Source of the DNA: Escherichia coli
Lineage (GTDB): Bacteria; Pseudomonadota; Gammaproteobacteria; Enterobacterales; Enterobacteriaceae
Direction: 5' to 3' (one strand)
Length of the DNA: 64,000 nt
Assembly (NCBI RefSeq): GCF_003334315.1
Contig: NZ_QOWR01000015.1
Part shown: in pieces, positions 3,001 to 9,000 of the stretch
Layout: each line of letters opens with the position of its first letter
Numbering within the stretch: the first letter of the stretch is position 1
Made by a program: the position numbers

Positions 3001-6000
3001 CAAAATTAATTTTATCGGTGTAGATATGGTTACCGGACTCATCATCATCATACCTAACGTTAACAGAACGCTGGATATAACCAGATCCACTACAACAAAG
3101 GGTAAATAGATATAAAAACCTATAATAAATGCACTTTTTATCTCACTCAACGCATATGCCGGGAGTAACGAGAAAATTGAAATATTATCATCATCGAATA
3201 TCTCTTCATTGTCTTCAGAGCTATTCACCTTCTGAATCTTTTCAAAAAAGTTAACCAACTCCGGTTCGGAATATTTTATCAAATATGATTTATAACCACT
3301 CATGCCTGTCTCAACAAAATTAACAACCGACGCTACATTATTGAATGAAAGATTCTCATTCTGACTGTTATAATATATTTCCTTCCCAACCGGCATCATT
3401 ACAAACATTGACAATAGCAAAGCAACCCCATTAAGTGTCATATTTGATGGCACTTGCTGAAGCCCCAGCGCGTTTCGGACAATAACAAAAACAATCGAGA
3501 ATTTAATAAAATATGTCCCGGATGCTATTATAAACGGCAATAGTGTAAATAATGATAGTATAGCTATCAGCGAAATGCTATTTGACATTATTATGCCCTG
3601 ATAACCAAGAATGAATCTCTACGCCCAATTTATCATCCACTTCAACAAGTTTTCCATAGCCAGTTAGCGCGCCATTTACACGTATTTCTATATTTTTCTC
3701 AGATTCAGAAAGCAGAGATATTATTCTTTTTGCACAGAGTTCGTCTATTTCATATAGATTCATTATTTTCTTACCAAGAACAAACTCAATTTTTACAGGC
3801 AAGTCTTCAAAACTATTAATCATCTGATCGTCATTTTCATCATAAATCTCACTCTCGTTTTTTTTGATATCAAAATCATCTGTTTCAAAATCTTCCTCGT
3901 ACTCAAAATGATCAGCCATTTTTAACTCCTCTGGATAAATTAAATCAAAAATTTTTGTATTATAAATAACCGCATAAGCCAAATTATTTGAGATTAATAA
4001 AACATCACCAACTTCAATATCAACAAGACTTCTGTAACATGTTTTACTAAATCCAATTACAAAATGAATGGAGCAATATAACGATTTTTTGTCTAACGCT
4101 GGAGCGTTTCCGTATTGGCAGACTGTGACTTTATCTAACCAAAGATTCAATTCCCCTCTCCATATTCTTATTAGTGGTTGAGCAGGGCTCAATACTCCAT
4201 CAAATACTTTACCTACGCGCAAACGATTATATTTTAGTTCAGGATGCTTTAGATTTAACGGGGAACTGGATAAACTGAGCCATTCCCCTATTAACCTTTC
4301 CGTTTCTGGCATTAAAGCCATCCCAGCGAGCTCAGATGAAATTAAGGGAAATATTTCTCCAAGCAATACCCATCCAGACCAGCTGCCACTCTCTTCTGCT
4401 ATCGGTAGCCATTTAGCACTAAATTCGGGCATTAATAATGCAACATCTTCGCCATTTTCTTTCCAATTTTGAAAAGTGGTTTCAAACGTATGAGTGTTTC
4501 GATTTACTTTCCTCAGACCGAACATTAACTTTCATCCTTCTGATCGTTTTCGAATTTGCTTTCATTTTCTTGCTCCTCATAAGGCTGATGTCGTTGTCCT
4601 TGTCGTTCATCTTGCTCAGTCAATACCCAACGTTGTGCTGTAACTCATTATGAAAACTATTTAATTCCCTCATCATTGATAAGATTGGACATCTCTTTCA
4701 ACATGAGAGTCATTGAAGCTTTCGACCAATTTAGCGGAATGATAGGGCTTGGCGCTTCATGCAAAGTTCCCGACTTGTGGATATAGTTATAGCTTTCGGG
4801 AAGTGCCATTTCTGGTACGCTCCTGCCATTTGCACCAATCATATTCTCGCCTGTTATTTGGGCCAATGATCTATTCATAAATTGCACTGAGTCATTCAAA
4901 TACTCTTCTTTTCTTGATTCTTTATAAACAATTGCTGCTGATTTTGCATACCATGAGTCAAAAAACCATTCTGCTTCTGTTGATGGAATGAAGCTCTTTT
5001 CTCTTTTCACATGTGAATTTTGATCGATATCGGTTTTAATATCATTGAACCAAAAATTTGCCGACTGATAATTATCCTTCTCGTATCTTTTTATACCATA
5101 CGGACCTGCTAGTTTTTTAACTATTTTTAGAACCTGCTCTTTTCTTCTGGTGTTTATCTTTGCAAGATTTGCAGGATAAATAACATTAAGTAAAGCCGCA
5201 TCGGCTTCTCTGTAATGTTTATCTTTTTCCAGATAACCTGGGGATTCTCCCCCTAAATCAAGCTGTAACGTTATTCTTTCATAACCTTTATCTATGAGGT
5301 GGTTCAACCTCGTTGTTGAAAGAGGTTCATCCAGTTCATTGGCTTTAGCTTCGCGTAGTAAATCAGAGACAAAAACAGAGTCTTTCTTCGAGAGTAAGTT
5401 CGACAAACGTTCCAGTCCAGAGGTCACCAGTGCAACGGAAGATGTGTTTAATCGGGCATCTTCTTCCCATGCTCCGGAATCTTCCATAACATAGAAATTG
5501 GCTTTATCCAGATAAGCAATCAGCAGCGCAACCGATTTTAATCGGTCACCTTTTTGCCAATCTTCAGCGTTAATTGTACCAGTGTCGATTGCTTGTATAA
5601 GGAGATCAAGATAAAGACCTAACGCATCATTTTGTTTATGGTTCCACAGCTGCGGCTTGCCTTCTTCCTGCACATCTGCCATCACGGGGGAGTTGCTGTC
5701 AAATCGGATATGCACAGCATTCATTTGCCCGGGAACTCCATCCAGTCGTTTGGGGTTGCTAATGACGTCCTGCATCCGCTTAATCTGGTCGGGCGTAGAC
5801 ATATAATCCCACAGGGTGAGCAGAACCTTTTTTGCGGCTACACTATTTCCCTGATCTGATACTAATGCCATATAGCCCCATAAACTATCCCTCAGCCAGA
5901 CAGCATCATAGTGGGTTTCTGCCGCTGTTTTGTCATCTTCGAAAGTAGAAGCAAGAATAAATGTTCCCCAGGGTTTCTCCGTCAACGTTAACTTTCGTGT

Positions 6001-9000
6001 GTTTTCTGTTAATGTTAACAACCCTTGAATTTCGTCTTTGGTATAGTGGCTCTTTATTTCATTTTTTAATTTGGCTGAGTGAATCAGAAGACGATAATTA
6101 GGGTACTTATCTGGATTTAACGATAAATAACTTTTATCTGTTGCTGCCCCCGTGGAATTAAGAATGTTAAATACAGATTCACTCGTCACTTCTGCCCCTG
6201 TCGCCTGGCATGTGCCGCACGAAAATATACCAGCGAGCAGAAGAGTTAATGCAGATTTCCCTTTCATAAAATATTCCATCAATCGTTTGTTAAAAGCGTA
6301 GATAACCACTTATTTAACAACTTGAAAATAAGGTGTTTTACCTGGGTTGTTACAAAAGGATTGCATTGCGTAAACGCTTTTTATTTACAACAAAATGGGG
6401 AAATATTACGGCGATTGCGAAAAGTCTGAAGCGATTGAATTAAGATAATATAGAAAATCAGATACAGCAAAAATGGCAGATTGATGAGGCGAAGATAAAT
6501 TGGAGCGGGCGAAGGGAATCGAACCCTCGTATAGAGCTTGGGAAGCTCTCGTTCTACCATTGAACTACGCCCGCTTCGAGATGCGTAAGGCATTATAAAC
6601 CTTACGCTCTCCTTAGCAAGTGCCGCGCTGCTGACTGCTGATTAATTCGCCATCAGCATTTTGGCTTGCTGCCCTGCGGCGGCAAGTAACGTAGCGGATC
6701 AATTGCCGTTGCACGGTAACGAATCTGGAAATGCAGGCGAACAGATGCCGCATCCGTGCTCCCCATAGTGGCGATTTTTTGCCCAGCCTTCACGCTTTGC
6801 CCATTATTTACCAGCATCGTGTCATTATGGGCGTAAGCCGTAATGTAATCTTCACTGTGTTTAATCATGATGAGATTACCGTAGCCACGCAGCTGGTTGC
6901 CCACATACACCACCTTTCCTGCACCCGCGGCGTAAATAGGTGTACCCCGTGGAGCTGAGATATCAATCCCTTTATTGCCGCCATCTGCTGTCGAATACGG
7001 CATGATAACTTTCCCTGTCGTTGGCCATAACCAACAACGTTGCCCTACTGGCGGCCAGGATGATTTCGGTACCGCTGATGACGGTGTAACCGATGCGGTT
7101 TTGGTCGTTGATTTGGCGGTTGATTTACGTGTACTACTGCTACTTTTCGCCCCACCCAGTTTTAGTTTCTGACCAACTTCAATGGTGTAAGGGGGGGAAA
7201 TGCCGTTCAGTCGCGCCAGTTCTTTTACGCTGGTTCCCGTGGTGCGCGAAATACGATATAGCGTATCCCCCCGTTTCACGGTGTAAACGGAGCCGGAATA
7301 CGTTCCTGTATCGGATGATTTGCTACCCGAACAACCCGCCAAAAGCAGTCCAACCGATAACAACATCACGATACCCAGAGATTTTTTATTCAGGCGTCCC
7401 GCACTCAAAATCTTTCCTCGCTTAAAAAACAAGACGCCTTATCATAGCAGCCAGCCTCTTGATACCCAATCTCTTGCTTCTGGAAAAACGTGGTAATAGA
7501 GAAAGAGGTTAATTTCATTTGGCAAAGGGAAGTATCATCAGCAAAATATTCGCTGTAGAGGTATCGAACTTCCTGACTTTTTACCCTAGTTCCCATCCTG
7601 ATGCGTAATAATCCCAATTTATCACATTGATTTTATCGCCACTCATATTGATACGTATCACTGCCCCTATTCAGAGTCCTGTTTCGTATCATATCTGTGT
7701 TTTTTTAACGTCATCACACTTCCTACCTCCCCTAACGCTTATCGTCGTTTCTGGCGTAAATCTTGCCTGCTTAGACTAAATCTTTGCCATAAGAACCAAA
7801 TGTTCAAATCGAGGGGATTTCTATGGAAGCGCGGGAAGCAACCGCTACGGGTGAATCATGCATGCGCGTCGATGCCATTGCTAAGGTCACCGGGCGGGCA
7901 CGATATACTGACGATTATGTTATGGCGGGCATGTGTTATGCGAAATATGTACGTAGCCCTATCGCACATGGTTATGCCGTAAGTATTAATGATGAACAAG
8001 CCAGAAGTTTGCCGGGCGTACTGGCGATTTTTACCTGGGAAGATGTGCCTGATATTCCATTCGCTACAGCTGGGCATGCCTGGACACTTGACGAAAACAA
8101 GCGCGATACCGCCGATCGCGCACTGCTAACTCGCCATGTTCGTCATCATGGTGACGCCGTTGCCATCGTCGTGGCCCGCGATGAACTCACGGCAGAAAAA
8201 GCGGCGCAATTGGTCAGCATTGAGTGGCAAGAATTACCCGTTATCACCACGCCAGAAGCGGCGCTGGCAGAAGACGCTGCACCAATCCATAACGGTGGCA
8301 ATTTACTGAAACAAAGCACGATGTCGACGGGTAATGTCCAACAAACAATCGATGCCGCCGACTACCAGGTACAGGGGCACTATCAGACCCCCGTTATTCA
8401 ACATTGTCACATGGAAAGCGTAACATCGCTGGCGTGGATGGAGGATGACTCGCAAATTACCATCGTTTCCAGCACCCAGATCCCGCACATTGTTCGCCGC
8501 GTGGTTGGTCAGGCGCTGGATATTCCCTGGTCATGCGTACGAGTCATCAAACCATTTGTCGGTGGCGGTTTTGGTAATAAACAGGATGTACTGGAAGAGC
8601 CAATGGCGGCATTCCTGACCAGCAAGCTTGGCGGCATTCCGGTGAAAGTTTCCCTTAGCCGTGAAGAGTGTTTCCTCGCAACCCGTACCCGCCACGCTTT
8701 TACCATTGACGGGCAAATGGGCGTGAACCGCGACGGAACATTGAAAGGTTATAGTCTGGATGTTCTGTCTAACACCGGCGCTTATGCATCTCACGGGCAC
8801 TCCATCGCTTCTGCGGGGGGGAATAAAGTCGCTTACCTTTATCCTCGTTGTGCCTACGCTTACAGTTCAAAGACCTGCTATACCAACCTCCCCTCGGCTG
8901 GTGCGATGCGTGGTTATGGCGCGCCACAAGTCGTATTTGCCGTTGAGTCTATGCTTGATGACGCCGCGACAGCGTTAGGTATTGATCCTGTTGAAATTCG

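Follow-up and report, generated by a model that had tools for sequence, protein, structure and literature searches.

What kind of protein is encoded between the remains of a secretion system of type III (T3SS) and the tRNA gene glyU in this Escherichia coli chromosome, and does it serve the secretion system or work apart from it? The window, by which we mean the whole 64,000-nucleotide stretch analysed (contig NZ_QOWR01000015.1 of assembly GCF_003334315.1), is E. coli chromosome and carries, from left to right, the end of an IS1 element, a degraded remnant of the island for type III secretion system 2 of E. coli (ETT2), the gene in question, glyU, actS (ygeR), xdhABC and ygeV. The gene is pkgA, with the synonyms ECs3736/ECs3737 in O157 Sakai and EC042_3075 in enteroaggregative E. 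coli (EAEC) 042, and its remnant in K-12 is ygeQ (b2863). On balance, we consider it probable that the product, PkgA, is a Sec-exported glycoside hydrolase of family 15 (GH15), inverting and exo-acting, that works independently of type III secretion. The coding sequence (CDS) is as follows.

4657-6267, minus strand: pkgA CDS, 536 amino acids and a stop, K-12 ygeQ in its intact, full-length form; RefSeq WP_000676901.1; predicted GH15-family (alpha/alpha)6-barrel protein

The initial annotation of this locus had noticed a GH15-like motif and proposed a profile search and a structure prediction as checks, and both agreed with a GH15-like enzyme. Pfam PF00723 (clan GH-L) matched PkgA with an E of 3.2e-5 and matched 24 of the 46 family members at E<=1e-3. 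NCBIfam returned only TIGR01577 for PkgA, far below its cut-off, which marks PkgA as a member of a divergent GH15 subfamily. When a broad family profile was compared with solved structures, it matched phosphorylase kinase (PhK) alpha at 5.8e-21, PhK beta at 1.5e-11, the GH15 structures 5z3a/5z3d at about 1e-9 and glucodextranase at 1e-4. The AlphaFold model, built from the 46-homolog alignment, had a mean predicted local distance difference test score (pLDDT) of 90.5, with residues 1-25 alone disordered (pLDDT <50), and Foldseek concurred with a GH15 fold. On the model, the fold of PkgA is the GH15 (alpha/alpha)6-barrel, laid out as one collinear domain with a short N-terminal extension. A fusion of unrelated fragments was also considered and was rejected, as the full-length homologs align collinearly and confidence is uniform along the model.

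Then, does PkgA keep the residues with which a GH15 enzyme works? As judged by alignment, the full catalytic set is conserved (E268, E491, Y120, W124, R126, D127, W208, R394, D398, Y400 and W514). The W-x-RDS motif, from which the resemblance to GH15 had been noticed, is present as WLRDS, and four further motifs align with those of Aspergillus niger glucoamylase.

5884-5898, minus strand: WLRDS, residues 124-128 (W124, R126, D127), corresponding to W52/R54/D55 of A. niger glucoamylase
5626-5646, minus strand: WNHKQND (W208...D214), aligned with the glucoamylase W120 region and with W-x-H-x-Q-x-D of PhK alpha
5461-5469, minus strand: WEE (W267, E268, E269), with E268 the predicted general acid, aligned with glucoamylase E179 and PhK alpha E185
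5068-5088, minus strand: RYEKDNY (R394, D398, Y400), aligned with glucoamylase R305/D309/Y311
4786-4800, minus strand: PESYN, with E491 the predicted general base, aligned with glucoamylase E400

The other equivalences to the A. niger enzyme are Y120 with Y48, W267/E268/E269 with W178/E179/E180 and W514 with W417. Glu185 of PhK alpha sits in a WE motif that aligns to E268. Across 35-46 homologs there is no variation in the catalytic and binding residues, E268 and E491 among them, and the subsite -1 set of R126, D127, W208, R394 and Y400 (equivalent to R54, D55, W120, R305 and Y311) is invariant or nearly so. The motif positions of the A. niger reference sequence reproduce the published numbering; its aligned range was 302-427, as against 302-428 for the PDB chain match, and 3eqa lay on profile positions 305-433. 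Simpler comparisons reached less far. Single-sequence phmmer against the PDB gave weak PhK matches only, hhalign, set between the family and a single glucoamylase sequence, covered no more than the N-terminal half, and pairwise local alignment failed at the C-terminal general-base region, which the broader profile resolved.

The length first assigned to the protein needs adjustment. An open reading frame (ORF) of 550 amino acids at 4657-6309 had been reported, and the frame is real and uninterrupted on the minus strand when read from GTG 6309, but the start of pkgA is likely ATG 6267, giving 536 amino acids. RefSeq places the start of the identical gene in E. coli W5-6 at the ATG equivalent to 6267 and names the product 'glycoside hydrolase family 15 protein'. 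At the resolution of the first DNA match, the two strains are 100% identical over window positions 4400-6700; the allele comparison shows one nonsynonymous difference in pkgA. ATG 6267 is preceded at 8-10 nt by a weak GGA, and none is found upstream of the other candidate starts. The N-termini of homologs (MKRKS... in E. albertii, MKGKY... in the homolog P0004) also fit this start. The extension beyond it is probably not translated.

6268-6309, minus strand: mechanical 5' ORF extension as far as GTG 6309; a further ATG is at 6279, and no Shine-Dalgarno sequence precedes the GTG

Two plus-strand ORFs inside pkgA (5294-5494 and 5632-5859) were without support, promoter and terminator scans did no better than shuffled controls, PADLOC reported nothing, and the only Rfam match within 4300-6800 was glyU.

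The gene had been presented as an unusual feature whose function could not be named. It is in fact already known, being named, annotated and covered in ETT2 reviews, so that finding it here is in itself of little consequence. Zhou et al. enter pkgA as "phosphorylase kinase and glucoamylase" and repeat Pallen's idea of 2003 that it is a putative glucoamylase directed against host glycogen and, speculatively, an ETT2 effector (PMC3977695). The same statement appears in the genome paper of EAEC 042 (PMC2808357). Sakai ECs3736/ECs3737 are pkgA split by a frameshift and correspond to b2863/b2862. UniProt lists the K-12 remnant (Q46797) as 'Uncharacterized lipoprotein YgeQ'. Full-text literature searching found no functional study of ygeQ, pkgA or the locus tags.

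How would PkgA leave the cytoplasm? The initial annotation had called a signal peptide, and the n-, h- and c-regions expected of a Sec signal can be recognized in the sequence.

6202-6267, minus strand: predicted Sec-type signal peptide, residues 1-22 (MKGKSALTLLLAGIFSCGTCQA), within the unstructured residues 1-25 of the model

The N-terminus, MKGKSALTLLLAGIFSCGTCQA/TG (the slash marking the site), has two Lys residues, a 12-residue hydrophobic core (best 10-mer Kyte-Doolittle value 2.5) and an AxA-type site, and cleavage likely follows A22 or A25. AxA-type sites are found in all enterobacterial copies, the closest homologs reading AFA/T, AQA/T and AQA/S, and a hydrophobic segment at the N-terminus occurs in 72 of the 112 homologs of full length. 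Lipoboxes are clear in many of the Bdellovibrio-like copies, and the Gram-positive copies from Clostridiales XIII and Bifidobacterium have no signal. PkgA itself may be lipid-anchored, given that Cys17 in GIFSC fits a relaxed lipobox pattern (PROSITE PS51257-type) and that Cys17 is shared by E. albertii (VLAC). The Cys is missing from the next closest homologs (P0004, P0006 and P0007), which have AxA sites instead. These features bear on the proposal, made by Pallen and echoed in reviews, that PkgA is an ETT2 effector injected into host cells to attack or deregulate glycogen metabolism. The N-terminal signal of a T3SS substrate is unstructured, is neither hydrophobic nor cleaved, and comes without a Sec signal; the form predicted for PkgA in all enterobacterial copies is, unlike it, a classical cleavable Sec signal, and UniProt predicts a lipoprotein.

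The position of pkgA next to T3SS export-apparatus genes (755-4565) can be explained by the history of the island. Four features define its glyU end.

6501-6574, minus strand: glyU, tRNA-Gly(CCC) identified by Rfam, the ETT2 insertion landmark, upstream of pkgA
6359, no strand: glyU-proximal edge of ETT2, where homology to an island-free strain restarts, 91 bp upstream of the pkgA ATG
4644-4649, no strand: junction of an 8.73 kb ETT2 deletion, from alignment to O157, 8-13 bp past the pkgA stop
4525-4644, minus strand: 3' stub (120 bp) of eivJ (SpaN family), left over from the deletion

pkgA is a native cargo gene of ETT2 at the glyU end of the island. In an ETT2-free strain the order is yqeG-glyU-actS, with pkgA absent from the empty yqeG-glyU site, and because homology to that strain restarts at 6359, pkgA and the 91 bp upstream of it are island DNA. 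The GC content of pkgA is 40.8% (37.8% at third codon positions) versus 36.1% in the ETT2 remnant to its left and 50.3% in the core genes to its right. The earlier view that the AT-rich gene was acquired with the island therefore holds. The accompanying view that it occupies the place of needle and ATPase genes does not. O157:H7 and E. albertii have pkgA at the same spot by glyU with the full eivJ-eivF block alongside, in the order pkgA, a ghoT/ortT-like toxin gene, eivF, eivG (sctC), eivE, eivA (sctV), eivC (sctN), eivI, eivJ and epaO. Alignment to the O157:H7 locus (L002) equates window positions 1381-4649 with 1-3270 and window positions 4644-9000 with 12001-16353. The 8.73 kb deletion removed the 5' part of eivJ together with eivI, eivC/sctN, eivA/sctV, eivE, eivG/sctC, eivF and the ghoT/ortT-like gene, and it was this event that placed pkgA beside the export-apparatus genes. 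pkgA thus does not replace the needle and ATPase genes, because those genes were deleted next to it. The identical junction is present in five other strains, and the deletion is the 8.74 kb right-end loss that has already been described for ETT2 isoforms (PMC11068852).

If pkgA depended on ETT2, what would be expected to happen to it once the secretion system was lost? The initial annotation had asked whether the gene is intact in other strains, and the answer is mixed. Among 5,426 complete E. coli genomes, 3,987 have at least part of the pkgA CDS and 2,969 have at least 80% of it. The state of the ORF was judged in an even-step sample of 60 carriers, a rough measure since the table shows no pseudogene flags. 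About 31 of the 60 have an uninterrupted 1611-bp match and a single GH15 CDS, and the others have insertion sequence (IS) insertions, small length changes (O157:H7 included), a split "ygeQ + hypothetical" annotation, or truncations. The gene is broken in O157:H7, K-12 and B, with codons 1-379 retained in K-12 and codons 1-178 in B.

The intact alleles bear the mark of constraint. The pairwise ratio of nonsynonymous to synonymous substitution (dN/dS) among them is 0.08-0.16. pkgA is intact in all eight sampled alleles that carry the identical deletion junction, and these eight show 20 segregating codons with synonymous changes only versus 15 with amino acid changes, a normalised ratio of 0.21. 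The comparison with E. albertii reaches deeper in time, with 76% amino acid identity and a dN/dS of 0.07 overall, 0.05-0.11 for the mature protein and 0.05-0.06 for the core; the signal-peptide region is only 24% identical. In synonymous divergence from E. albertii, pkgA (pS 0.71) is on a par with the other genes of the island (0.60-0.74) and above the core genes (0.43-0.55). Between the E. albertii (L013) and O157 (L002) loci, ETT2 genes have 62-90% amino acid identity and actS, xdhA and xdhB about 95%. pkgA is under purifying selection, with a dN/dS of about 0.1-0.2, in lineages whose T3SS has been destroyed.

The distribution of the family gives a second view of its link to type III secretion. 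The pkgA family is small and rare: a set of 1.84 billion proteins yielded 465 representatives at E<=1e-3, and 35 loci (L020-L054) were found among 100,044 GTDB species-representative genomes. The loci come from Commensalibacter, from termite-gut Elusimicrobiota, Planctomycetota, Clostridiales XIII, Synergistaceae and Mycoplasmataceae, from metagenome-assembled genomes (MAGs) of rumen Ureaplasma, from Saccharibacteria and from Bdellovibrionales and Oligoflexia. As a whole, the GTDB distribution is skewed to insect, termite and rumen gut symbionts (Commensalibacter, Elusimicrobiota, Mycoplasmataceae and Saccharibacteria) and to predatory Bdellovibrionales/Oligoflexia. No T3SS genes were found in the 7-10 kb flanks (or to the contig end) of the 35 loci, nor in same-size flanks of eight contexts from seven distant homologs, six of them of known taxon. 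Thus the family is found outside T3SS-bearing organisms and islands, and the copies of Mycoplasmataceae, Saccharibacteria, Clostridiales, Bifidobacterium and Commensalibacter, which have no T3SS nearby, speak against an injected effector. No recurring neighbours were found across Yersinia, Commensalibacter, Bifidobacterium, Bdellovibrionales, Clostridiales XIII, Elusimicrobiota and one further contig. Apart from a distant match in Embleya, the search for plasmid-borne copies turned up only chromosomes of E. coli wrongly labelled as plasmids.

Closer to E. coli, SPI-1-type (Salmonella pathogenicity island 1) T3SS genes do appear. The homolog P0004 (65% identity; contig L018, 1-16659, Logan DRR526056) is divergent from prgH in an SPI-1-family block of hilA/eilA-like, iagB-like, orgB, orgA, prgK, prgJ, prgI and prgH genes, and the homolog P0007 (58% identity) adjoins invH-like and ortT-like genes. 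Within Enterobacterales, pkgA is thus carried along with SPI-1-type T3SS islands in three distinct arrangements, namely eivF-ortT-pkgA, invH-ortT-pkgA and prgH-pkgA.

Some details of these contexts may be recorded in their own right. Beyond the pkgA homolog on L018 are parA/parB-like genes, a SopD-N/pentapeptide (PipB-like) effector gene and an ankyrin-repeat gene. In Yersinia enterocolitica (L003, 3748-7440) two ORFs, of 848 and 326 amino acids and without a match in Pfam or NCBIfam, precede the homolog, which has 60% identity; an invasin-like gene lies close by, and no T3SS genes were found within 8 kb. In a MAG of Clostridiales Family XIII (L015, 5692-8677) a signal-less homolog overlaps by 20 nt the upstream gene for an MFS_2/GPH-type sugar symporter, which suggests an operon for glycoside import and cytoplasmic cleavage and is the one hint of a substrate that the neighbours gave. 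A gene for a GhoT/OrtT-family toxin of 57-59 amino acids adjoins pkgA in O157:H7 (L002, 11768-11947), in E. albertii (L013, 11687-11866) and on the unrelated contig L019 (3144-3317), where an invH-like gene is also adjacent. ortT and pkgA seem to travel as a pair, and the toxin gene is deleted in the window.

Elsewhere in the window, the residual ETT2 export apparatus (755-4644) is dead: sctU/epaS is in three ORFs, sctQ/epaO is frameshifted and sctT/epaR is interrupted at codon 61 by an in-frame stop (2469-2471), with epaP and epaQ apparently intact. Positions 1-204 hold the end of an IS1 inserted in an ETT2 regulator gene of the LuxR/helix-turn-helix (HTH) type (etrA/ygeK type), an insertion absent from the near-identical W5-6. 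dsbC (45628-46339) is intact and is annotated as frameshifted in RefSeq for the otherwise 99.98%-identical W5-6, where the frameshift may stem from an error in the assembly or from a lesion peculiar to that strain.

What, then, would PkgA do? In the reading that we consider probable, Sec export would bring mature PkgA to the periplasm or cell envelope. The mature protein would act as an inverting exo-hydrolase and free glucose from the non-reducing end of an alpha-glucoside, either an oligosaccharide or a glucan. Its action would be independent of the T3SS, with no injection into host cells, and pkgA would be island cargo selected for whatever the state of the T3SS. Several points weigh against this reading. 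We know of no enzyme assay on record for any member of the pkgA clade, and the signal peptide was called by heuristics only. The gene is often broken, by the O157:H7 frameshift, a nonsense mutation at codon 265, truncation in K-12 and B, reduction to fragments in Shigella and IS elements, and can therefore be dispensed with in many niches. The argument from selection presumes a single origin of the deletion and little later recombination. The three closest contexts outside E. coli (E. albertii, L018 and L019) all put pkgA by SPI-1-type T3SS genes, and this recurrent linkage hints at some functional coupling. Finally, the D1 domain of PhK alpha has an intact-looking site, yet is inactive on maltose, isomaltose and glycogen (PMC10978961); the substrate of PkgA may therefore not be a common alpha-glucan.

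Functional coupling could take the form of a periplasmic accessory of SPI-1-type islands, in which PkgA, much as IagB does with peptidoglycan, would trim an envelope glycan (for example, alpha-glucosyl residues of lipopolysaccharide or a different periplasmic glycan) for the assembly or function of the needle complex. The three SPI-1-family arrangements, the predicted Sec export and the altered cell-surface properties of an ETT2 deletion (PMC6030553) would all suit such a role. We nevertheless regard it as unlikely: pkgA is still conserved and under constraint where the T3SS has been lost, no T3SS lies near the distant homologs, some of which are cytoplasmic, this analysis identified no candidate for an alpha-glucan substrate in the envelope of E. 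coli, and the linkage could merely reflect joint carriage on mobile islands. A broader form of the idea, which we find equally unlikely, is that PkgA belongs to a small, mostly host-gut clade of secreted GH15 enzymes, the closest kin of the PhK domains, that in Enterobacterales assists SPI-1-type T3SS by acting on an unusual envelope or host alpha-glucoside. Were that true, the substrate would explain why invasion islands retain pkgA and would reveal a cryptic ligand of the PhK alpha site.

It is quite improbable that PkgA is instead a non-catalytic pseudo-enzyme, binding carbohydrate or regulating in the manner of the glucoamylase-like D1 domains of PhK. PhK alpha and beta are the nearest solved relatives, and PhK alpha combines both glutamates with the inactivity described above (PMC10978961). 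Against this, every GH15 catalytic and subsite residue is invariant over many phyla, a pattern typical of active enzymes, the core dN/dS is as low as 0.05-0.06, and PkgA is a stand-alone single domain with no partner domains. The suggestion that pkgA is a functionless island remnant, undecayed by chance in this strain, would fit the widespread disruptions listed above and the pseudogenised state of the rest of the island in the window; it is very improbable in view of dN/dS values of 0.07-0.2 at all depths sampled, the deletion genotype included, and of an uninterrupted 1611-bp CDS in about half of the sampled carrier genomes. Injection as an effector, although stated in the literature (PMC3977695, PMC2808357) and favoured by the position of pkgA inside ETT2, by the host PhK alpha/beta domains as the most similar solved proteins and by close homologs on L018 and L019 beside SPI-1-type T3SS and effector-like genes, is hardly credible because of the conserved Sec signal, the T3SS-free relatives, the intact and constrained gene where sctC, sctV and sctN are deleted, and the failure to find any effector in the secretome of an O2 strain whose ETT2 is intact (PMC6030553).

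The Sec-exported GH15 hydrolase acting apart from type III secretion is thus the reading with which we proceed. The label of "ETT2 effector", now 20 years old, is hard to square with a Sec signal that is conserved and with homologs lacking a T3SS in their neighbourhood. Purifying selection in many E. coli lineages with a dead ETT2 makes pkgA probably a working envelope enzyme and not debris. The pkgA clade is the nearest relative of the glucoamylase-like domains of PhK alpha and beta, and the enzymology of PkgA could inform both the question of its substrate and that of the PhK domains.

How does PkgA compare with the systems already described? Copies of pkgA/ygeQ elsewhere share the locus by glyU and 97-100% DNA identity, and their likeness to glucoamylase and phosphorylase kinase has been noted in the literature. 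The copy in the window is intact at 536 amino acids, whereas in Sakai/O157 a frameshift splits the gene into two ORFs, and K-12 YgeQ is an N-terminal piece of 264 amino acids (nonsense codon 265) with the DNA past codon 379 deleted and both catalytic glutamates missing. The characterized GH15 enzymes, namely Kribbella flavida isomaltose glucohydrolase (5z3a), A. niger glucoamylase (3eqa), Arthrobacter glucodextranase (1ulv) and Clostridium glucoamylase (1lf6), are only 13-16% identical to PkgA. They have W-G-R-P-Q-R-D where PkgA has W-x-H-x-Q-N-D, and PkgA has in addition a GGESP motif, which is conserved, and about 25 residues inserted after Y400. Its N-terminal extension is short (about 80 amino acids) and is not the beta-sandwich N-domain of bacterial GH15 enzymes, and it has no starch-binding domain. 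The PhK alpha and beta subunits (8jfk) are cytosolic and regulatory, with about 1100-1200 amino acids in five domains, and PkgA matches D1 only; the WEE of PkgA is WER in PhK. PhK beta lacks the catalytic residues and no hydrolase activity has been detected for PhK (PMC10978961), whereas PkgA has, by alignment, the complete catalytic set. IagB and EtgA resemble PkgA as Sec-exported glycan-cleaving enzymes from injectisome islands, the activity of PkgA being predicted. They are, however, lytic transglycosylases of the SLT fold that act on peptidoglycan, whereas PkgA has a predicted GH15 fold and an alpha-glucoside-type site.

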